This document shows, piece after piece, positions 4,636 to 41,178 of a DNA stretch of 64,000 nucleotides. The stretch covers positions 20,529-84,528 of the forward strand of contig JAWAQK010000002.1 of the NCBI GenBank assembly GCA_038893995.1, written 5' to 3'. The DNA comes from Candidatus Thorarchaeota archaeon (GTDB lineage: Archaea; Asgardarchaeota; Thorarchaeia; Thorarchaeales; Thorarchaeaceae). A model generated the notes under the pieces. That model searched no databases and was not told the DNA's origin. It saw only the letters and a list, made by a program, of their open reading frames with translations. Numbering within the stretch: the first letter of the stretch is position 1; every line of letters starts with the position of its first letter. A program made the position numbers and the translations under genes.

Positions 4636-6711
4636 CCTATGGCTCTAGCAGACAACAGTTTGCAGTTGCGATTTGAGGACTTCCTTCGAAGCTACAAGGA
4701 TGAACATGGCACTCCCATATACTGGGTAAGAGTCCAGAACATGCCTATAGAGGGATCTACATCACTGACAGTGGACTTTCAGGAACTGGCCAGTTTCGAT
4801 AACGAATTCGCTAGGATTGCGAGAGAAGACCCCGACTTGATGTTGCTTCACTGTAATCGAGCATTGCTTGACGTCCTATCTCGTGAGGACCCAGACTACG
4901 TGAGTTCTCTCAGAGACAAAGACCTCCTTCGTATACGTATTGTCAACTACCCCGAGTACACTCCACTTCGTGCCATCAGATCCAAACACATTGGCAAACT
5001 CATCTACATCCGCGGGATCATGATGAGGGCCAGTGAAGTGAAACCCCTGCTAAGAGAGGCCCTGTTCCAGTGCAGGGTGTGCAAGCATGAATGGCATGAA
5101 CCTCAAGAAGAGGGCCGATATACTGAACCTCTGACATGCCCTGTGTGTAATGTGAAGACTCCTGTCCGTCTGATTCCCGAGAAGTCATATTTCACAGACT
5201 GGCAGAAGGTCCGAATACAAGAAACACCCGAGGAGCTTCCCCCAGGCCAGATGCCCAGGTCGCTTGATGTCATACTCGAGGGTGACATAGTTGACACATC
5301 TAGACCTGGAGACCTGGTGAAGATCTGTGGAATCTTGAGGACGTCTCCTGATTTCTCACGTAAGGGCAGCCGTCTGGCCACATTTAATGTCTACGTCGAA
5401 GCAAATGGCATTGAGATTGGCGAGAAAGAGTACGAAGAGCTAGAGATAAGCCCTGATGACGTGAAACAGATCGAGGAACTCTCACGCGATCCGTACGTTC
5501 ACCAAAGAATCTATGCATCGATCGCGCCGTCGATACAGGGATATGAACGTGTGAAGGAATCGATTGCGTTACTTCTGTTTGGTGGAGTCGGAAAGGTGTT
5601 GCCAGACGGGACTCGATTGAGGGGACGCTCGAATATACTCATGATTGGAGACCCGGGCACAGGCAAGAGCCAGATACTCAAGTTTATTGCAGGACTGGCA
5701 TCCAGGGGTCTGTACACCTCAGGCAAAGGCACCACAGCAGCAGGTTTGACGGCGGCCGTGATCCATGATACAGAAACGGGAGCAATGACTCTTGAGGCTG
5801 GAGCACTGGTACTGGCAGACCAGGGCATAGCTTGTATTGACGAGTTTGACAAGATGGATCCAGACGATAGAACTGCAATTCACGAGGCAATGGAACAACA
5901 TACAGTGAGTATCGCAAAGGCCGGGATTGTTGCCACACTCAATGCCCGGACCTCTATTCTTGCAGCAGCAAATCCCACACTGGGACGCTACGAACCCTCT
6001 CTTTCTCTTCAAGACAATATTCGGCTTCCATTCACGATCCTATCTCGGTTCGATCTAATATGGGTCATGATTGACACTGTTGAATCCACCAAGGACAGAG
6101 AGCTGGCTCGTTTCATCCTGACAATGCACCAGAGTCAGCGGACCCCTGACCAGAAGAGTGCTCCTCCAATTCCTCCCTCCCTGCTGAAGAAATACATCCG
6201 TCATGCAAGCAGGTTGAACCCACAGCTTACACCAGAGGCCGCTGAGGTCATTGAGAACTTCTACGTTGATCTACGAAAAACAGCGGAGGGCGGTGCCGGT
6301 CCGGTGCCGATAACTGCACGTCAATTGGAGTCTCTCGTGCGTTTAGCGGAGGCTCGTGCAAGAATGGCACTGAGGACAAAAGTCACCAAAGAGGACGCAC
6401 AAGCAGTGGTCAATCTGATGGAGGCATCTCTGCGGGATGTGGCCCTCGATCGTGTGACTGGCAAGATCGATATTGACACACTTGTTTCGAAGATGAGCGC
6501 TGCACAGAGGGGATCATCTGACATAATCCTCAAGGCCATGAAGGAGCTGGAGGCAGAGGGCTCCTCGACTGTGAGTGAAGAGGCGCTAGTGCAACGTGCA
6601 GCTCAGATGGGACTCTCTGTCGAACGCGCCCAAGAGGTGATCAAGAAGTTGCTTCAGGAAGGGATTCTATTCAACCCTCGAGAGGGGAAGATCAAGCGTG
6701 CACAGGGGTGA
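4636..6711 (+). CDS. mcm: MCM replicative helicase (alternative upstream start at 4501)
   Basis: Zinc finger CRVCKHEW...CPVCN, Walker A ILMIGDPGTGKSQ, Walker B CIDEFDKMD, arginine finger SRFDL, C-terminal winged helix; about 691 aa from 4636. Confidence 0.93.
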   Translation, partial: PMALADNSLQLRFEDFLRSYKDEHGTPIYWVRVQNMPIEGSTSLTVDFQELASFDNEFARIAREDPDLMLLHCNRALLDVLSREDPDYVSSLRDKDLLRIRIVNYPEYTPLRAIRSKHIGKLIYIRGIMMRASEVKPLLREALFQCRVCKHEWHEPQEEGRYTEPLTCPVCNVKTPVRLIPEKSYFTDWQKVRIQETPEELPPGQMPRSLDVILEGDIVDTSRPGDLVKICGILRTSPDFSRKGSRLATFNVYVEANGIEIGEKEYEELEISPDDVKQIEELSRDPYVHQRIYASIAPSIQGYERVKESIALLLFGGVGKVLPDGTRLRGRSNILMIGDPGTGKSQILKFIAGLASRGLYTSGKGTTAAGLTAAVIHDTETGAMTLEAGALVLADQGIACIDEFDKMDPDDRTAIHEAMEQHTVSIAKAGIVATLNARTSILAAANPTLGRYEPSLSLQDNIRLPFTILSRFDLIWVMIDTVESTKDRELARFILTMHQSQRTPDQKSAPPIPPSLLKKYIRHASRLNPQLTPEAAEVIENFYVDLRKTAEGGAGPVPITARQLESLVRLAEARARMALRTKVTKEDAQAVVNLMEASLRDVALDRVTGKIDIDTLVSKMSAAQRGSSDIILKAMKELEAEGSSTVSEEALVQRAAQMGLSVERAQEVIKKLLQEGILFNPREGKIKRAQG

Positions 6712-6726
6712 TCCGCCAACTTCCAA

Positions 6727-8958
6727 TTGACGGGGATGGTCAAGACGCTTGTAGGAGACCTTCCACTGAACCGAAGAGTCGTTGATGTTCTCAGAAACTT
6801 AGGTATCAATGAACTCTATCCTCCGCAAGAGCTCGCGTTTCGAAGCGGTGTCTTGGAGAGGAGAAACCTGGTACTATCCGCTCCCACAAGTTCAGGCAAG
6901 ACACTGGTTGCCGAGATATGTGCAGTTCACTCGATCCTGGAGCGTGGAGGCAAGGCCCTATACCTTGTTCCATTGAAATCTCTCGCGCGTGAGAAACTGT
7001 CGGAGTTTGCAAAGTACGAGTGTCTCGGGTTCTCCACAGTGGTTTCGGTCAGCGACTATGAGTCGTCACGACCAGAACTCGCAGATGCCGACATACTCAT
7101 TCTGACTAACGAGCGTGCTGACTCACTGATCCGTCAGAGGCCTGATTGGCTGAACGATGTCTCTGTGATGATTGCAGACGAGATTCACTTGGTTGGCGAC
7201 AAGACTCGTGGTCCAACGCTAGAGATGGTCATCGCTTGCATGAAACGTCTCTGTCAGGGCCTGCAGATCATAGCGCTCAGTGCAACAATACCCAATGTTG
7301 ATCAGATAGGTCGATGGCTAGATGCAGTTGTTGTCTCCAGTAACTGGAGACCTGTACCGCTTAGGGAAGGTGTACTGCTCGACAACGAGATCCACTACAG
7401 CGATTCATCAATCAGGGTCCTGACAGATACGGGTCGAACTGGCATAGAGAGTCTAATACAGACAGTCTTGAACGATGGTGGTCAAGTCTTGGTCTTTGTT
7501 TCGAGCCGTCGATCTGCAGTTTCACTTTCGAGAAGACTAGCTCCCTTGGCTGCATCACATCTGAGCGATGACGAACGCCATCAGCTATCCCTATATTCCA
7601 GAAGAATCAGTGTCGATGCATCTTCCCCTGTCTCCTCATCGGTTCTTCGCGAGATGATCGAACGTGGTTTGGCCTTTCATCATGCAGGACTATCAGATCG
7701 TGAGAGAGCAACAGTGGAGGATTGTTTCCGAAAACGTCTGCTAAAGATCATTGTTGCTACCCCTACACTTGCAGCAGGGGTCAATCTTCCGGCCCGCTGT
7801 GTCATAGTTCGTGATTACCGCCGCTTCGAGGATGGGTTGGGTAACAGACCTATCCCTGTATTGGAGTACAAGCAAATGGCTGGTAGGGCTGGCCGTCCGC
7901 TCTACGATACTTGTGGTGAAGGTATACTGATTGCACAGACCCCTGAGGAGCTCGATTTCCTTCATGACAACTATGTACTTGCTAATGCTGAGCCAACCGT
8001 TTCAAGGCTAAGGTCCACAAGGGCCCTTCGTTTTCATCTATTGGCCGCGATAGCTGGAGGGCTATCTAGAAACCTAGAGGAGATTCATGATCTTTTGGGC
8101 TATACCCTGTACTCTGTTCAGTTTCCCAGGCCTCGAATTGAAACAAGGCTGTCCCTAGCTCTGGAGTTCCTCGAACGCAAGGGCTTTGTGAAACACGAGT
8201 CTGGACAAATACTCCCCACATCCTTTGGACTTCGAACGTCTCGTCTCTACATCGATCCGCTGACAGCTGTCCTGTTCAGAAGTCGATTGCCAGACTCAGA
8301 TGACATTCCGGTCATTGGCCTCCTACATCTACTATGTCACACTCCAGATCAACCACTTGCGTATGTTTCACAGTCCGAGATCGATGAGTACTCCAATCTT
8401 CTCGAGTCATACATCGATGACCTCATTTTGAGCCCACCCTCTGAAGGCCCTCGATACTACCGATTTCTGTGCGAGTTGAAGACTGCATGCATACTTCACG
8501 ACTGGATATCCGAGAAGTCAGAACGCGAGATTACGGATCACTATAACATAGGAATGGGTGACGTCCATCGATATGTCGAGTCCACCCAGTGGCTGCTCTA
8601 CTCTGCAGGAGAGATTGCTCGTGTGCTAGGAATCCAAAAACCAGTGAAACTCCTACAAGAGATCCGACAACGCGTGAAGTACGGCGTCAATGCCGATCTT
8701 CTCGAGCTAGTTTCATTGAGGGGGGTGGGACGTGTCAGAGGGAGAATGCTGTACCAGCATGGACTGAAACGGCTTCAAGACCTATGTATGGCACCAGTTT
8801 CTCAGATAGCACGTGTACCGACTATCGGTCAATCACTGGCTGAATCCATAAAGCAGCAGCTGAGTGGTGTTGACAACCATGTCGGTTCACCGCCCCTAGA
8901 TGATGCCACTTTCGACAGCGACTACACAGGTCAGACTGTGCTCGATGACTTCGACTAG
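6727..8958 (+). CDS. hel308: Ski2-like DNA helicase Hel308/Hjm
   Basis: 743 aa with motif I APTSSGKT, DEIH box, motif VI QMAGRAGR, and the C-terminal ratchet/HhH region typical of Hel308. Confidence 0.88.
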   Translation: MTGMVKTLVGDLPLNRRVVDVLRNLGINELYPPQELAFRSGVLERRNLVLSAPTSSGKTLVAEICAVHSILERGGKALYLVPLKSLAREKLSEFAKYECLGFSTVVSVSDYESSRPELADADILILTNERADSLIRQRPDWLNDVSVMIADEIHLVGDKTRGPTLEMVIACMKRLCQGLQIIALSATIPNVDQIGRWLDAVVVSSNWRPVPLREGVLLDNEIHYSDSSIRVLTDTGRTGIESLIQTVLNDGGQVLVFVSSRRSAVSLSRRLAPLAASHLSDDERHQLSLYSRRISVDASSPVSSSVLREMIERGLAFHHAGLSDRERATVEDCFRKRLLKIIVATPTLAAGVNLPARCVIVRDYRRFEDGLGNRPIPVLEYKQMAGRAGRPLYDTCGEGILIAQTPEELDFLHDNYVLANAEPTVSRLRSTRALRFHLLAAIAGGLSRNLEEIHDLLGYTLYSVQFPRPRIETRLSLALEFLERKGFVKHESGQILPTSFGLRTSRLYIDPLTAVLFRSRLPDSDDIPVIGLLHLLCHTPDQPLAYVSQSEIDEYSNLLESYIDDLILSPPSEGPRYYRFLCELKTACILHDWISEKSEREITDHYNIGMGDVHRYVESTQWLLYSAGEIARVLGIQKPVKLLQEIRQRVKYGVNADLLELVSLRGVGRVRGRMLYQHGLKRLQDLCMAPVSQIARVPTIGQSLAESIKQQLSGVDNHVGSPPLDDATFDSDYTGQTVLDDFD

Positions 8959-10096: not shown

Positions 10097-10232
10097 GGGT
10101 CGGTAGTCTAGCTTGGTATGATACTTGCTTGGGGTGGCCTGTTATTAGTTAGGGCCTCCAATATGCAAGAGGACGGGCGTTCAAGACCGCATGCGACTCA
10201 CGCATGCTCTGGAATTCGCCCCCGGCCCACCA
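10097..10232 (+). tRNA. tRNA-Pro(GGG) with two introns: 29 nt at position 37/38 and 30 nt inside the T-loop
   Basis: Acceptor GGGTCGG pairs with CCGGCCC, then A and an encoded CCA. Anticodon stem CTTGC/GCAAG is perfect; the loop TTGGGG is interrupted by a 29-nt insert containing a GGCC...GGCC hairpin. T-stem GGGCG/CGCCC flanks TTC[30 nt]AATT; the insert holds a 7-bp palindrome GCATGCG-ACTCA-CGCATGC. Confidence 0.6.
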
Positions 10233-10331: not shown

Positions 10332-10437
10332 GCCGGGGTGTCCCAGCGGCTACGGAGGCGGTCTCGAAGCCATTCAGATGCGGCGATAGAACCGCTGTGC
10401 TTTGCACTCGTGGGTTCGAGTCCCATCCCCGGCGCCA
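10332..10437 (+). tRNA. tRNA-Ser(CGA), class II, with a 21-nt anticodon-loop intron
   Basis: Acceptor GCCGGGG/CCCCGGC plus G and an encoded CCA. Anticodon stem GCGGT/ACCGC, loop CTCGAA, then a 21-nt insert. Long variable arm GTGC-TTT-GCAC. T-arm GTGGG-TTCGAGT-CCCAT. Confidence 0.8.
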
Positions 10438-11015: not shown

Positions 11016-11160
11016 TGGCGGGCGCGCCAGGATTTGAACCTGGGACATCTTGCTTGCTTCAAGTGACCGTAGAAGACCATTCAAGGATCACAGACCGAAG
11101 GCAAGCGCCCTATTGGCTCTTCGAGGACAATGTCCCGAATCCAAACTAGACTACGCGCCC
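11016..11160 (-). tRNA. tRNA-Arg(TCG), probable, with about 70 nt of insertions: about 25 nt next to the D-stem/position 26 and about 40 nt at 37/38
   Basis: Minus-strand acceptor GGGCGCG/CGCGCCC with G and an encoded CCA. Intact T-arm CCAGG-TTCAAAT-CCTGG. Anticodon stem CTTGC/GCAAG with loop CTTCGG interrupted by about 40 nt. A second insert lies between D-stem 3' strand GGAC and the anticodon stem. Confidence 0.55.
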
Positions 11161-18305: not shown

Positions 18306-18306
<1 letters not shown>

Positions 18307-21300
18307 TAGATCATCTCCTTCAATCTGAGTCTACAGGCGAGACCGAGTGACATCATCTCCTGGATCAGTAGCTTGAACGCATACGATACTACTACGCTGC
18401 TGACCTTCACACTCGGTCCACACACAGGGCAGTAGTACTGGTCCTTGTTTCGGTCGTATACTCCTATGAGCCCACATTGTTCACATACTAGCATGTTGCT
18501 CTTGTCTGACTCATCGAGGAGCCTTCCCTTCAACAGGATTGCTGCGCCATGACCTATCAGCACATCCCGTTCCATCTCACCGAAACGAAGACCTCCTTCT
18601 CTGGCTCTCCCTTCTGTGGGTTGCCTCGTAAGGATCTGCACTGGGCCCCTTGCACGAGCATGTATCTTGTCCGCAACCATGTGATGTAACCGTTGATAGT
18701 ATATCACGCCGATGAAGATGTCTGTCTTAAGCTTCTCTCCTGTGACTCCAGAGTACATGACTTCACGACCATTATACTGGAATCCATGGGACTGCAGGAC
18801 CCTGAATAGCTCATCCTCAGTAACTCCGCAGAAGGGAGTGGCGTCCTGCTGCTTTCCCTCCATGCACCCAGCCTTGCCGGCTATCATTTCCATTATCTGT
18901 CCTATCGTCATCCTGCTTGGAATTGCATGGGGGTTCATGATCAGATCTGGGACAACACCGTCCTCAGTGAATGGAACATCTTCCTGTGGCACGATGTACC
19001 CTATCACACCCTTCTGACCATGGCGTGATGCGAACTTGTCTCCGAGTTCTGGAATCCTGAGGTCCCTGACCTTCACTTTCACGAGCCTGTTACCGTCAAT
19101 GGTTTCGGTCAGTATGACCGTATCTATCACACCTGATTCCCCGTGACGGACCGCATTGGATGTCTCACGCCTATCAGGCAATGGGAACTCAAACTCTGAG
19201 TATTCCTCAAGGAATCTGGGAGGCGATGTCCTTCCTATCAGGACGTCACCTCCCTGAACTTCCACTTCGGTTTCGATGATGCCATCTTCACCAAGATTAC
19301 GATACGACTCAGATGCACGATACCCTCGGACGCTTCGCTCAGGTATCTCAAACTTGTCTTCTTGTCCACCCGGGTATTTTCGTTCCTCACTTTCGTATAC
19401 ACGGGCGAAGCTGCTTCTTCCTAGTCCTCTCTCGATAGAGGCCTTGTTCATTATCAAGGCATCTTCAATGTTGTATCCCTCGAACGATAGCACTGCGACA
19501 ACGAAGTTCTGACCCGCAGGTCTCTCTTCATATCCTATCGAGTCCATTGCACGAGTCTTGACAATGGGAACCTGTGGATAGTGAAAGAAATGCGACCTCG
19601 TGTCTGTTCTGAACTTGAAGTTTGAGGCAGGAACTCCGATTGACTGTTTCGCCATGCCCGCCATGTACACGTTTCTGGGGGATTGATTTCGTTCTGGAAA
19701 CGGTATGAGTGCGGCAGAGATCCCCAGAATAGTTGACGGAACTATCTCCAGATGAGTGGTATTCGGACCTATATTCTCTGGATACAATGCGATCAGAGTG
19801 TTCTCCTCTTCTTCTGCATCCAAGAACTCCACGATACCGTTTCGTAACAGATCTGAGAAACCCCAGGTTCCCTCCGTAATCATTCTGAGATGTTCGTCAG
19901 TCAGTCTGCTACGCCCATTTTCAACGACTATCAGTGGTCTTCTGACACGACCTGCATCGCAGTTTACTTGGACTTCATTCGTCTTCTTATAGTAGGCTAT
20001 GTTGACCTCCTGATCTATTTCGCCTGCTCTTCTTCGTTGACGAATGGTCTTGACAAGCACCTCCGGTGCTGGATGTACTCCTACTAGACGGCCGTTCAAG
20101 AACACGTCTGCTGATTTAGTAGTGCGTTTCCCTCTTATCCTCTCAATGGGCTCTACGTCTGCCTTGATCAGTGCTCTCTCAACCTCCTCCTCGGAGGTTC
20201 CTACTGAGATGTGAGCCATCATTGCGATGTTCTTGACTAGCCCACAGTTGGGCCCTTCGGGAGTTTCATTTGGACAGATCTTTCCCCAGTGTGTTGAGTG
20301 CAGGTCACGTGCCTCGAAATGTGGTTGCGACCGAGAAAGCGGAGAAACAACTCTTCTCAGATGCGACAGTGATGAGATGTAGTTTGTTCTATCAAGTAGC
20401 TGAGACACACCTGCCTTTCCACCGACCCAATTACCAGTTGCAAGTGCATGTTTCATCCTCTGGGTGATCACGTCAGCTCTGACAGCGGTTCTGATGTTGG
20501 GTTTTCTGCCTCTAACTGCGTTTCGCTCGAGCTGGTACTTGATGTCTCTGGTCAGCGAGTAGAGGGCCAGTCTAAAGAGTGACATCAAGAGGTCTCCGGA
20601 AAGCTTCAATCTCTTGTTTGCGTAGTGATCCTTGTCGTCTGGGTCTCGTTTGAGCAGAACTAGTTCGAGGAGTCGCTCGACCATCTGCCCAAGGTAATAT
20701 GCTTTTGCAAGATTGTGTTTCTCTTCTGTACCTATGTGTGGCAGAAAGTATCTCTCAAGGACCTTCTGTGCTCGCACAAGACGGTACTCCTTGGTTTGAC
20801 CGACTGCGACTCGTTTGCCTATGAAGTCGAGTGCATTCTCTCGTGTGGTACCCCCTTCGGCATCAGCCCCAGCATTTATTGGTGCTGCTTGTTCCATCGT
20901 CACAATGAGCTCATTTCGAATCTCCTCATCATCTGAGATGATATCGACAATCTCCTTGTCGGATTCAATACCGAGTGCCTTCATAAGGATCGCGAGCGGT
21001 ATCCTTCCTGGCACAGACGGAAAGACCACACGAAGTTCTCCAGTCCGCTTTCTTTCGATGGTGACTGGTGCCCTGAATCCCTTTGCTGTTGAAAACACCT
21101 TTGCAATATGGGTATAGCTTGAGCTCTTGCTTGCCTCCTCGATCAATACCCTATTGGGCGCCAGATCTTCTTGTGTGACTAGTACTCTCTCTGATCCGTT
21201 GATGATGAAATATCCTCCAGGATCCTTGGGGTCTTCTCCATGTTTGATCAGCTCCTCCGGTGACATGCCATATAGCAGACACTTCTCACTTCGTAGCATG

Positions 21301-21671
21301 ATTGGCAGGTCGCCAATGTACACCCTCTGAGTTTCCATCCTTGTAATATTGGCGCCTTCTTTTCTTACCGGCGTCATCTCCAAGTAAAGCTTGCTTGCAT
21401 AGGTCAGATTCCTGATGCGTGCTTCGTTGGGATAGAGTAGGTGCTCGCTACCGTCTGCCTCCCTCACGGTGGGAGCTTCTACGGTGATCTGGCCGAACTC
21501 CACGTAGTATCCCTCTACCTTCGGAGTCAATCTACCTATGCTATCCACGACTTCCTGGAGTCCGTACTTCACGAAACGGTTAAACGAGTCCAGATGTTGA
21601 CCCACGAGGCCTCTCTCTCTAAAGTAGGCCTCAATCACTGGCCAGTATTTTTGTCGCTCTTCCAGACCCAC
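18306..21671 (-). CDS. rpoB: DNA-directed RNA polymerase subunit B (unsplit)
   Basis: 1121 aa single ORF with a C-terminal zinc ribbon CEQCG...CPVCG. B'/B'' are fused, as in TACK, Thermococcales and Thermoplasmata. Confidence 0.93.
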
Positions 21672-21841: not shown

Positions 21842-21972
21842 TGGCGGGCTCGGCGGGATTTGCTCCAATACCGAGACACGCTCGGTCCGATTGAACCCGC
21901 AACCCTCAGGTGTCTCTCTCGGTTTCCCTTGAGATAAAAGCCTGCTGCGCTGCCTGGTTGCGCCACGAGCCC
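21842..21972 (-). tRNA. tRNA-Lys(TTT) with two introns: about 23 nt at 37/38 and about 31 nt in the T-loop
   Basis: Acceptor GGGCTCG/CGAGCCC with G and an encoded CCA. D-arm GCGC-AACCAGGCA-GCGC. Anticodon stem GCAGG and loop CTTTTA, then an insert with a TCTC...GAGA hairpin. T-stem GCGGG/CCCGC flanks TTCAA[about 31 nt]AT. Confidence 0.6.
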
Positions 21973-22291: not shown

Positions 22292-22427
22292 GCCCCTGTG
22301 GTGTAGTCCGGCTAGCATACTAGACTGTCACACTTGGTTGACAGGTGTCCCAAGGGCTAGTCTGGTAACCCGGGTTCAAATTGGGTTGTGGTAAGCACAT
22401 CCCATGAAGGTCCCGGCGGGGGCGCCA
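22292..22427 (+). tRNA. tRNA with two insertions: about 25 nt in the anticodon loop and 30 nt in the T-loop. Anticodon is tentatively CAC (Val)
   Basis: Acceptor GCCCCTG/CGGGGGC (one G-U pair) with G and an encoded CCA. T-stem CCGGG/CCCGG flanks TTCAAAT[30 nt]. Best anticodon arm is AGACT-GTCACA-[25 nt]-T-AGTCT. The D-loop is long and the variable loop would be 6 nt, so the isotype is uncertain. Confidence 0.45.
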
Positions 22428-22438
22428 TCTTCTTTTCG
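22428..22438 (+). terminator. Oligo-T tract after the tRNA
   Basis: TCTTCTTTTCG immediately after the CCA end. Confidence 0.35.
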
Positions 22439-22656
22439 TCCTCTCAGGCTTGTGAACATATGTGAGGGATTCGGTGTGCTTCTCTTCTGGCTATCTGGTG
22501 AGCTTTGGGGACGTTCCCTATTGGCTATATCACTCTCGGACAAGTTTTCCTCTGGCACCTATTCGACGTGTTTGCCATGCCAGTGTTGATCCTTGTTCTG
22601 TGCTGTATCTAGTCACAACGTTTATGTGGAGTTCAGTATCGTTCCTCCTTCGAAGC

Positions 22657-22793
22657 GCCGGGATTTCCTAGCCTGGACGACTCTATGTGTCGGGGCAATA
22701 TGGAGCCAGCCTGCTAAGTTGGTGTGCTTGCACGCGAGGGTTCAAATGGCATCTGCACAGGCCGGATGCCTGAAACTCCCTCTCCCGGCGCCA
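22657..22793 (+). tRNA. tRNA-Ser(GCT), class II, with two introns: about 23 nt in the D-loop and 30 nt in the T-loop
   Basis: Acceptor GCCGGGA/TCCCGGC with G and an encoded CCA. D-arm TCC-TAGCCTGGAC[insert]GGA-G parallels the Ser(CGA) gene. Anticodon arm CCAGC-CTGCTAA-GTTGG. Variable arm GTGC-TT-GCAC. T-stem GAGGG/CCCTC flanks TTCAAAT[30 nt, hairpin GGCATC/GATGCC]. Confidence 0.6.
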
Positions 22794-23195
22794 TGACTCC
22801 ATTGTCGGGCCATTCTCTGTTTCTGAGTGTGACGCTCACGAGTTCATATCTTGAGGTTGGATTCTGCTAGATCTCTTCTACCACGACTCTGTTGACGTGA
22901 TTCTAGGCATTGGCTGCTGAGGTCCCTACATCGCCGGAATCCCGATGCCATGACTTATTCAATCTAGTAAGATTGTACGATTAGGGTGTCGAGTATGGAG
23001 TCGAGAACATGATCTGTCCAACCCTGTGATGTGAGATGTACCAATCCTTCCGACTGAGTCAGAGGGTGTATCACTAGACCGTTCCCATTTGCCACGCAAA
23101 TTCAGTAGCGAGTGGGGTGATGCGGTTCCCGAAACCTGCTGCCTGTAACTGCTGCCATAGAACAGAAAAGAATCGGACTCGGGCCACTCGCCCGG

Positions 23196-23212: not shown

Positions 23213-24538
23213 CTACTGTCTCTTGTTCACTGAGAGCACTATTCCGACCGCCACGGTCATTCCCATGTCACGAACGGCGAATCTGCCAAGCTGAGGTATC
23301 TCCTTGTATGGTTCAATGACCATTGGCTTCAGGGGGACAAGCTTGGCTATCATTGACTCGCCCTTCTTCACAAACTCAGGATTCTCTTGAATGACCTGTC
23401 CAGAGCGTTGGTCGATCTTCTTCAAGATCTGATCAAATCTACAGGCGACCTGAGCCGTGTGTGCATGAATTACGGGTGTGTAGCCCGCCGCGATGGCCGA
23501 AGGATGTTGGATGACCATTAGCTGGCCCGTGAAGTCAAGTGCCACAGTGGGCGGGTTTTCAACGGGCCCCGCAACATCTCCTCTTCCAAGGTCTTTCCTC
23601 TCAATACCACGGACGTTAAAGCCTATGTTGTCACCTGGAACTGCCTCTGGTAGCTGCTCGTGGTGCATCTCAATGGACTTGACCTCTCCCACCTTGTTGG
23701 GTGGCATGAAAACCACCTTCTGTCCTGGCTTCAGGATCCCAGTTTCAACACGTCCGACTGGAACCGTGCCAACCCCCTTTATGGAGTATACATCATTAAT
23801 GGGTATCCTGAGAGGCTTGTCAACCGGTTTCGGTGGGATTGGTGTGGAGTCAAGTGCCTCGAGGAGACAGGGTCCGTTGTACCATGGTGTGAGGTTTGGT
23901 GTCCTGACCTTAAGGTTAGCAGCGTCTATGGCTGAGGTCGGAATGAAGGGGATCTGGTCGACCTTGTAGCCTATTCCCTTAAGGAAGCCACTGACCTCGT
24001 CCTTGATCTCTTTGTATCTTGCCTCACTGTACTTCACTTCGTCCATCTTGTTGATACAGACGATCAGACCCATGACACCAAGAGTCATGGCCAGGTATGC
24101 ATGCTCTTTTGTCTGACCACCAGGTCCCACACCTGCTTCGAACTCTCCGGTCTTGGCGGAGACAACAAGAAGCCCTACGTCCGCTTGGGACGCCCCGGTG
24201 ATCATGTTCTTGATGAAGTCCTTGTGGCCAGGCGCATCGATTATGGTTATGTACCGGTGTTCGGTCATGAACTTGAAGAACGCAATGTCAATTGTGAGAC
24301 CGCGTTCTCTTTCCTCCTTCAGTCTATCCAGAGCGAACGCCCACGCCCAAGACGGACGGCCTAGTCGCTCGGCCTCTGCCTTGTGCTGCTGGAACGTACG
24401 CTCATCCACGGCGCCGGTTTCGTATAGTAGGCGGCCCGTCATAGTACTCTTGCCATGATCAACATGGCCTATGACGACCAAGTTCACATGTTCTTTATCC
24501 TTCTTGCTCAACGTGAGAACCTCGGATTCGTGGGTCAT
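23213..24538 (-). CDS. tuf: Translation elongation factor 1-alpha (EF-Tu)
   Basis: 441 aa with GHVDHGKST, DAPGH and NKMD GTPase motifs and the EF-1alpha domains II/III. Confidence 0.95.
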   Translation of the reverse strand: MTHESEVLTLSKKDKEHVNLVVIGHVDHGKSTMTGRLLYETGAVDERTFQQHKAEAERLGRPSWAWAFALDRLKEERERGLTIDIAFFKFMTEHRYITIIDAPGHKDFIKNMITGASQADVGLLVVSAKTGEFEAGVGPGGQTKEHAYLAMTLGVMGLIVCINKMDEVKYSEARYKEIKDEVSGFLKGIGYKVDQIPFIPTSAIDAANLKVRTPNLTPWYNGPCLLEALDSTPIPPKPVDKPLRIPINDVYSIKGVGTVPVGRVETGILKPGQKVVFMPPNKVGEVKSIEMHHEQLPEAVPGDNIGFNVRGIERKDLGRGDVAGPVENPPTVALDFTGQLMVIQHPSAIAAGYTPVIHAHTAQVACRFDQILKKIDQRSGQVIQENPEFVKKGESMIAKLVPLKPMVIEPYKEIPQLGRFAVRDMGMTVAVGIVLSVNKRQ

Positions 24539-28326: not shown

Positions 28327-28378
28327 CTGACATACCCTCTTCTGTCTACGCATTCTCACAAGTATTCGGCAAGTAGGT

Positions 28379-28688
28379 GCAGCGGCCCACTCAGCGTCGA
28401 TTGTCCTTCCCAGTCAGCTCTCTCGTCGCTCTTCTCGGGGCGGCTTCCTCTGGGGCTCCTCCGCTCTGCCTTAGGGCTGTTCCCGCCAGGGCCTGACCCG
28501 GTTCGGCAGTCTAAGCACACCTGCATCAGTTCTACAACTGATGTTGTGGCCGCGTCGGACTCCAGAGACCACCCGTCACCGTCCTTCGACGAATGCTGTC
28601 CTGGTCCGGTTTCAACCTCTGCGGTGTTACTGGCGCCACTATTGCCTTGTGGTTTAAGCCGTGGCAAACGGCCCGCCCTTCCCGCTGC
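28379..28688 (-). ncRNA. Signal recognition particle RNA (7S/SRP RNA), probable
   Basis: The minus strand has the helix-8-like segment GGUCAGGCCCUGGCGGGAACAGCC (compare the bacterial/archaeal consensus GGUCAGGUCCGGAAGGAAGCAGCC). A terminal helix pairs GCAGCGG with CCGCUGC about 310 nt apart. The region has only low-complexity ORFs. Confidence 0.5.
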
Positions 28689-28750
28689 AAATCTTTACTG
28701 GCCGGCTTCTCATAAAAGGATTCTCCTGGGTTGCATAGTTGTCCAAGTCC

Positions 28751-41100: not shown

Positions 41101-41178
41101 TGGTGGGCCGGGCCGGATTTGAACCGGCGGCCTCTTGGTCCCGAACCAAGAATCATAGCCAATCTAGACCACCGACCC
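41101..41178 (-). tRNA. tRNA-Pro(CGG), intronless
   Basis: Acceptor GGGTCGG/CCGGCCC with A and an encoded CCA. D-arm GTCT-AGATTGGCTA-TGAT. Anticodon arm CTTGG-TTCGGGA-CCAAG. T-arm GCCGG-TTCAAAT-CCGGC. Confidence 0.9.

Follow-up and report, generated by a model that had tools for sequence, protein, structure and literature searches.

The window, by which is meant the whole 64-kb stretch of DNA analysed here (50.8% G+C), contains a tRNA-Ser(GCU) gene whose D-loop and T-loop are each interrupted by a short intron. The gene is flanked by the genes for RNA polymerase subunit B and EF-1alpha. For EF-1alpha the best matches show 85-92% identity; where they are named, the label is mostly Candidatus Thorarchaeota, which places the host in this group of Asgard archaea. 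To judge from the sequence, the locus at 22657-22793 (plus strand) is very probably a functional two-intron gene of a Thorarchaeota-like Asgard archaeon. The features of the locus and the two flanking genes are:

18306-21671, minus strand: flanking gene, RNA polymerase subunit B (identity read from the translation)
22621-22628, plus strand: putative archaeal TATA-like box TTTATGTG (TTTATG at 22621), starting 36 nt upstream of the mature 5′ end
22657-22676, plus strand: exon 1 (20 nt), with the acceptor 5′ strand GCCGGGA, U8 U9, the D-stem 5′ strand TCC(T) and the D-loop from A14 to G19
22677-22698, plus strand: D-loop intron (22 nt), ACGACTCTATGTGTCGGGGCAA, between G19 and U20 (linear nt 20/21)
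22699-22746, plus strand: exon 2 (48 nt), with U20 A21 U22, the D-stem 3′ strand GGA, G26 and the anticodon arm CCAGC-CUGCUAA-GUUGG in its 5′ part, and the variable arm UGUGCUUGCACGC, the T-stem 5′ strand GAGGG and the T-loop UUCAAA (positions 54-59) in its 3′ part
22747-22776, plus strand: T-loop intron (30 nt), TGGCATCTGCACAGGCCGGATGCCTGAAAC, at position 59/60, in a strict hBHBh′ motif
22777-22793, plus strand: exon 3 (17 nt), with U60, the T-stem 3′ strand CCCUC, the acceptor 3′ strand UCCCGGC, G73 and CCA
23213-24538, minus strand: flanking gene, EF-1alpha

The three exons are collinear on one strand and with their introns occupy 137 nt in all, in the order GCCGGGA-TT-TCC-TAGCCTGG (22 nt) TAT-GGA-G-CCAGC-CTGCTAA-GTTGG-TGTGCTTGCACGC-GAGGG-TTCAAA (30 nt) T-CCCTC-TCCCGGC-G-CCA. 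The acceptor stem is formed by GCCGGGA (22657-22663) and TCCCGGC (22783-22789), and the discriminator G with a genomically encoded CCA follows at 22790-22793. The anticodon GCU is at 22713-22715 in exon 2, within the anticodon arm CCAGC-CTGCTAA-GTTGG. The variable arm is TGTGCTTGCACGC, and the T-arm, GAGGG...CCCTC, is interrupted by the 30-nt insert, which displays a GGCATC/GATGCC hairpin. The 13-nt variable arm, the anticodon GCU and the discriminator G73 are those of a class II tRNA-Ser, and the architecture matches that of the Ser(CGA) gene at 10332-10437. This likeness had been pointed out in the first-pass annotation of the window, and a covariance model built from orthologs of the Ser(GCU) gene indeed matches both genes, with 58 bits for Ser(CGA) at 10332-10434.

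Upstream of the gene a box of the form (A/C)(A/G)N(C/G)TTTA(A/T)G is conserved 33-36 nt from the tRNA in the window and in Thorarchaeota-like orthologs, the latter having (C/G)TTTAAG starting ~33 nt upstream of the tRNA 5′ end. Judged by its sequence and position, the box is probably a BRE/TATA promoter.

Standard searches pass over the gene. ARAGORN, run in default mode and in three intron modes (-i; -i0,120; -i -io or -ps), did not call the locus, and Rfam gave no tRNA match there at the gathering threshold, at E<=10 on 22400-23000 or at E<=5 on the whole window; the sole local Rfam matches, lincRNA-p21_2 and SNORD105, are at chance level. A Thorarchaeota genome annotated in this way would thus seem to lack tRNA-Ser(GCU). 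The introns were defined with a custom scan for bulge-helix-bulge (BHB) motifs. The scan required a 4-bp central helix H, with the splice sites two bases into each flanking 3-nt bulge, and outer and inner helices; a manual check against the canonical intron in the Ser(CGA) gene (10332-10437) validated this geometry.

Removal of both inserts leaves an 85-nt sequence that ARAGORN calls as tRNA-Ser(gct), with a 7-bp acceptor stem, a long variable arm and a 5-bp T-stem. Among 86 BHB-compatible single or paired removals between 22650 and 22800, only one gives a tRNA, namely that of 22677-22698 together with 22747-22776, and a window-wide scan of pairs recovers the same two introns. The covariance model, for which nine orthologs, either spliced or without introns, but not the window sequence were used, matches 22657-22790 over its full length with 76 bits (E 3.5e-17), far above chance and the best match in the 64-kb window. 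In its alignment, ...CCUGG of the D-loop precedes one insert and UUCAAA of the T-loop the other. Assignments of the extra bases to the variable arm, the anticodon loop or other BHB-compatible segments were also tried; no tRNA results from them and the covariance model prefers none.

The claim of the first-pass annotation, a tRNA-Ser(GCU) with one intron in the D-loop and one in the T-loop, is therefore upheld by ARAGORN on the spliced form, by the covariance model and by the single productive removal out of 86. The structure-aware check that it proposed puts the inserts where it had seen them, and the better-scoring fold with the extra bases in the variable arm or anticodon loop, which it named as the result that would overturn the claim, was sought with the covariance model and the 86 removals and is preferred by neither. 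All strings that it quoted are read directly in the sequence at the coordinates given, among them TCC-TAGCCTGGAC at 22666-22678 and GGAG at 22702-22705, 23 nt apart, and the 30-nt T-loop insert with its hairpin lies inside a perfect BHB.

In this BHB of the T-loop intron the T-stem serves as the outer helix, with 5 bp between GAGGG (22736-22740) and CCCTC (22778-22782). The central helix H pairs TTCA (22741-22744) with TGAA (22771-22774), 4/4, and the bulges are AA|t and ac|T. An inner helix of 8 bp, GGCATCTG (22748-22755) with CGGATGCC (22763-22770), includes the GGCATC/GATGCC pairing. The motif ranked first in the BHB scan of the region (H 4/4, outer helix 5 bp, inner helix 8 bp) and has the strict hBHBh′ form, with cuts after the second base of 3-nt bulges and a 4-bp helix between them.

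The D-loop intron is of a looser type. Its central helix is complete, GCCT (22671-22674) pairing with GGGC (22693-22696) at 4/4, and is flanked by a 5′ bulge GG|a (22675-22677) and a 3′ bulge aa|T (22697-22699); the inner helix has 4 bp, CGAC (22678-22681) with GTCG (22689-22692). An outer helix abutting the 3′ bulge is absent: A14.A21 and U13.U22 are mismatched, and the D-stem lies beyond them. The geometry is thus not strict hBHBh′ and corresponds to the relaxed HBh′-type motif. The same relaxed form, consisting of H, one proper bulge and the inner helix, is found in all three genes that carry this D-loop intron, i.e., the window gene and two orthologs, L004 and L125. The 22-nt intron at 22677-22698 is the sole tRNA-compatible D-loop motif in the BHB scan. 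After splicing the D-loop reads TAGCCTGG|TAT, or UAGCCUGG|UAU as RNA, that is UAGCCUGGUAU.

It should be noted that relaxed motifs (H 4/4 plus a short inner helix) are common by chance, with about 6,000-7,000 loose candidates per strand of the window. The D-loop motif taken by itself is for this reason weak evidence, and its strength lies in its coincidence with junctions that orthologs define independently. The position of the D-loop junction is fixed because an intron-less syntenic ortholog, L114, reads TAGCCTGGTAT at this place, and the junction so defined coincides exactly with the cleavage sites of the relaxed HBh′-type motif.

Locus L114 (uncultured archaeon, locus 805-890, EF-1alpha 87% identical) has a Ser(GCU) gene without introns, GCCGGGGTTTCCTAGCCTGGTATGGAGCC...GGTTCAAATCCCTCCCCCGGCGCCA, and fixes the junctions of both introns. 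It is identical to the spliced window gene at 79 of 83 positions. The differences are confined to the variable-arm tip and to one compensatory acceptor pair, A7-U66 in the window and G7-C66 in L114; exon 1 is accordingly the L114 sequence save A7, which is compensated by T66.

Orthologs were collected by a scan of genomes with an anticodon-arm string, from contigs that encode close EF-1alpha homologs and by a scan of metagenomes. A 15-nt pattern scan of genome contigs gave at least 13 Asgard or uncultured-archaeon loci among at least 120 matches, which were mostly random bacterial ones. The Ser(GCU) gene adjoins EF-1alpha in the window and at seven orthologous loci, and the syntenic orthologs have 0, 1, 2 or 3 introns. 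Apart from the intron-less L114, the orthologs are:

L004, GCA_053491595.1, a Thorarchaeota-like MAG (by EF-1alpha similarity and synteny), 5664-5835, minus strand: 27-nt D-loop intron
L125, metagenome contig FWPU01003648.1, 11384-11551, plus strand: 28-nt D-loop intron
L006, L066, L075, L084, L085 and L124: canonical intron only
L082 and L099: canonical and 59/60 introns
L108 (Heimdallarchaeota): 59/60 intron only
L117, Hodarchaeota JAEOTC010000086.1, about 6540-6660, plus strand: single 30-nt D-loop intron at 21/22, with H CTGG/CCAG 4/4

Homologous D-loop introns at the identical site are found in two orthologs among the matches listed, L004 and L125, each of which has three introns (D-loop 19/20, canonical 37/38 and T-loop 59/60). 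In both, one-sided changes (GGGC or AGGT opposite the exon GCCT) leave the D-loop helix H intact at 4/4, and the inner helix is kept across the homologous introns while its length varies from 3 to 8 bp. Introns at 59/60 are also present in L004, L125, L082, L099 and L108. Between the window gene and L004 and L125 the exons are 87-95% identical, the D-loop introns 64-70% with indels and the T-loop introns 53-63%. Intron sites are shared with genomes at about 84-87% EF-1alpha identity, and the intron sequences have diverged. The canonical 37/38 intron carried by most orthologs among the matches listed is missing from the window gene. The single D-loop intron of the Hodarchaeota gene, placed at 21/22, points to an independent insertion in another Asgard lineage, as far as its sequence indicates.

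The region downstream of EF-1alpha was without a Ser gene in three syntenic loci, L001 (the closest named Thorarchaeota MAG, GCA_013388835.1), L002 and L003. At about 5960-6080 on the plus strand of locus L001, a different tRNA-like sequence with an apparent insert is located downstream of EF-1alpha.

Minimum free energy folding of the window precursor with RNAfold lacks the 4-bp TTCA/TGAA helix and pairs the D-loop intron slightly differently, so that the canonical BHB is reproduced for neither window intron, whereas it is reproduced for L004 and L125. The mismatch is put down here to nearest-neighbour energy models, which are limited in their treatment of 4-bp AU-rich helices with bulges on either side, and is not counted against the motif.

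Introns are a general feature of the tRNA genes found in the window. Besides Ser(GCU) these are:

10097-10232, plus strand: Pro(GGG), canonical and 59/60 introns (T-loop intron 10186-10215)
10332-10437, plus strand: Ser(CGA), canonical intron
11016-11160, minus strand: Arg(UCG), D-loop intron after G19 (the same site as in Ser(GCU)) and 40-nt canonical intron
21842-21972, minus strand: Lys(UUU), canonical and T-loop introns (T-loop intron 21860-21890)
22292-22427, plus strand: Asp(GUC), canonical and 59/60 introns (T-loop intron 22381-22410)
41101-41178, minus strand: Pro(CGG), no introns

Six of the seven genes carry introns, which argues that the pattern is genome-wide. T-loop introns of near-equal length, 30 or 31 nt, are present in four of the seven, Ser(GCU), Pro(GGG), Lys and Asp. 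The Arg(UCG) gene has a 27-nt D-loop intron (11114-11140, H GTTT/GAGC, bulge GG|a) and a 40-nt canonical intron (11055-11094, H CTTC/GAAG). When spliced it gives a clean 78-nt tRNA-Arg; unspliced it is miscalled ‘tRNA-Pyl’ by ARAGORN -i, and its Rfam tRNA score is 41 bits. The first-pass annotation had remarked that D-loop introns are uncommon. This is correct for archaea overall but not for the window, and since Arg(UCG) provides a second D-loop intron there, at the same site, such introns are not rare in this genome. By inspection, the T-loop introns of Ser, Pro, Lys and Asp show no similarity to one another beyond the bases forced by pairing, nor do the D-loop introns of Ser and Arg, and thus there is no sign of recent transposition. 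Another RNA gene candidate in the window is a full-length match to the archaeal SRP RNA (RF01857) at 28378-28689 on the minus strand, with 81.9 bits and E 1e-16; the gathering score is 96.5, and the match is therefore missed by threshold-based annotation.

The rejection of the locus by the standard finders, i.e., by ARAGORN with and without intron mode and by Rfam at the gathering threshold and at E<=10, is what would be expected of a decaying tRNA pseudogene or tRNA-like element from which the two insertions are never removed. Such a reading is very improbable. The exons are nearly identical to those of the intron-less ortholog and the sole change in a stem is compensatory, cleavage-competent BHB geometry is found exactly at the junctions of both insertions, and the intron sites persist in genomes at about 84-87% EF-1alpha identity while the intron sequences diverge. 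Synteny and the upstream TATA-like box are conserved as well, and the presence of introns in six of seven tRNA genes of the window also argues against decay.

A second alternative retains the gene and moves the D-loop intron. In the first-pass annotation the D-loop insert was taken as the ~23 nt that separate the two halves of the D-arm. The intron is present, but it is 22 nt long and starts 2 nt earlier, at 22677-22698 and not at 22679-22701. A 23-nt intron at 22679-22701 (GACTC...AATAT) would leave a mature D-loop UAGCCUGGAC and a tRNA reading ...CCUGGUAUGGAG, and ARAGORN likewise reports tRNA-Ser(gct) for the 84-nt sequence so obtained. However, the D-loop UAGCCUGGAC is found in none of 12 reconstructed orthologs, all of which have (T/G/A)AGCCTGGTA(T/A/C) before GGAG, and the intron-less L114 has TAGCCTGGTAT. 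The boundaries of the 23-nt version are also off the BHB cleavage sites, which only 22676/22677 and 22698/22699 fit, and the covariance model aligns ...CCUGG, the insert and then UGGAG. There is hardly any likelihood left for the 23-nt version. Other kinds of element, such as group I/II introns, the scar of a mobile element or parts of a tRNA that is split or permuted and needs trans-splicing, have nothing specific in their favour, apart from the existence of split/permuted tRNAs and of group I introns in tRNA genes of other lineages in the literature, and are effectively refuted by the anatomy of the locus, with next to no probability: the inserts, at 22 and 30 nt, fall far short of the size of a group I/II intron and no such Rfam family matches 22400-23000 at E<=10, the three exons follow one another in order on a single strand within 137 nt, and no terminal repeats or target-site duplications are present at the junctions.

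The two-intron Ser(GCU) gene, with junctions at 22676/22677 and 22698/22699 in the D-loop and with the 59/60 intron in the T-loop, would be expressed as follows. By the position of the TATA-like box about 36 nt upstream, a single precursor of 137 nt or more may be transcribed. Each intron with its adjoining exon bases is predicted to fold into a bulge-helix-bulge of two 3-nt bulges with a 4-bp helix between them. By analogy with other archaea, the splicing endonuclease EndA would cut after the second base of each bulge, and an RtcB-type ligase would join the three exons into an 85-nt class II tRNA-Ser with the CCA already encoded. Because the two introns disrupt the elbow formed by D-loop and T-loop, splicing would presumably have to precede formation of the L-shape. 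The relaxed, HBh′-like form of the D-loop motif would require an (alpha-beta)2 EndA of broad specificity with the L1/CSL loop. Kaneta et al. (2018) reported that Asgard archaea, including Thorarchaeota SMTZ1-83, encode an (alpha-beta)2 EndA with the L1 (CSL) loop, which confers broad specificity on the enzyme, and the relaxed motif classes HBh′ and hBH are defined in the same paper (PMC5829648). An (alpha-beta)2 EndA with the Crenarchaea-specific loop alone excises the D-loop intron of Aeropyrum pernix pre-tRNA-Thr(UGU) in vitro (Hirata et al. 2011, PMC3241643), and does so more slowly than it removes an anticodon-loop intron.

BHB introns at non-canonical positions (20/21, 22/23, 59/60) and genes with several introns are described from Crenarchaeota and Nanoarchaeota (Yoshihisa 2014, PMC4090602), in passages of which Sugahara 2007/2008 and Marck & Grosjean 2003 are cited for multiple-intron tRNA genes. 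The Ser(GCU) gene resembles the multi-intron tRNAs of Crenarchaeota/Thermoproteales in its short BHB-defined introns, of which there are several per gene, and its 59/60 intron is a textbook hBHBh′. It differs from the crenarchaeal genes in its Thorarchaeota-like Asgard host and in having only non-canonical introns, without one at 37/38. With A. pernix pre-tRNA-Thr(UGU) it shares an intron inside the D-loop; however, the A. pernix motif is a canonical BHB whose cleavage was demonstrated in vitro (PMC3241643), whereas that of Ser(GCU), a tRNA of another identity, is relaxed, has no adjacent outer helix and is known from sequence. Methanopyrus kandleri pre-tRNA-Glu(UUC) (PMC5829648) likewise combines a relaxed HBh′ D-loop motif with a second intron. 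There the D-loop site is 20b/21 and the partner is a canonical 37/38 intron, in contrast to the site after G19 and the T-loop partner found here. Furthermore, the M. kandleri EndA is without the L1 loop, which the Asgard EndA is reported to have (PMC5829648).

Among Asgard archaea, Atabeyarchaeia/Freyarchaeia have introns in 92-95% of their tRNA genes, often at non-canonical positions, and more than half of the genes have multiple introns (PMC11291895). Two-intron Ser(GCT) genes appear in Supplementary Data 4 of that paper, with a first coordinate 15 nt into the gene. These belong to another Asgard class, and the intron positions listed differ from the 19/20 plus 59/60 of the window gene. The tRNA sets of Thorarchaeota have been summarised (PMC5829648, Figure 7), and no gene-by-gene description was found in the literature consulted. 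Surveys of Asgard genomes found incomplete tRNA sets, which were attributed to undetected disrupted genes (PMC5829648).

The Ser(GCU) gene thus displays every sequence-level mark of a BHB-intron tRNA gene, with the D-loop intron in relaxed form only. Publications already describe introns in the D-loop and at 59/60, tRNAs with several introns, and how abundant these are in Asgard archaea, and no current concept is altered by the finding; its value lies in annotation and in the comparison of intron gain and loss. The exact junctions permit a correct annotation of the gene. Within a single Asgard order, orthologs at the same syntenic position carry anywhere from 0 to 3 introns, which documents that non-canonical introns have been both gained and lost there. 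The gene is also further evidence that ectopic tRNA introns are abundant in Asgard archaea in general, in association with a splicing endonuclease of broad specificity.

A further reading of the EF-1alpha-adjacent Ser(GCU) genes, put forward tentatively and regarded as rather unlikely, is that they make up a naturally occurring series in which introns turn over within Thorarchaeota, with the 37/38 intron lost in the window lineage and G18-G19 as a recurrent hot-spot. The site after G18-G19, used by both Ser(GCU) and Arg(UCG) in the window, would then be a hot-spot of insertion. The window lineage may have lost the widespread canonical 37/38 intron and kept two non-canonical ones, and the Hodarchaeota Ser(GCU) intron, two bases away at 21/22, may be an independent case. 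If the recurrence reflects site-directed intron gain, e.g., by reverse splicing or BHB-guided transposition, Asgard archaea would be a tractable system for the spread of tRNA introns.
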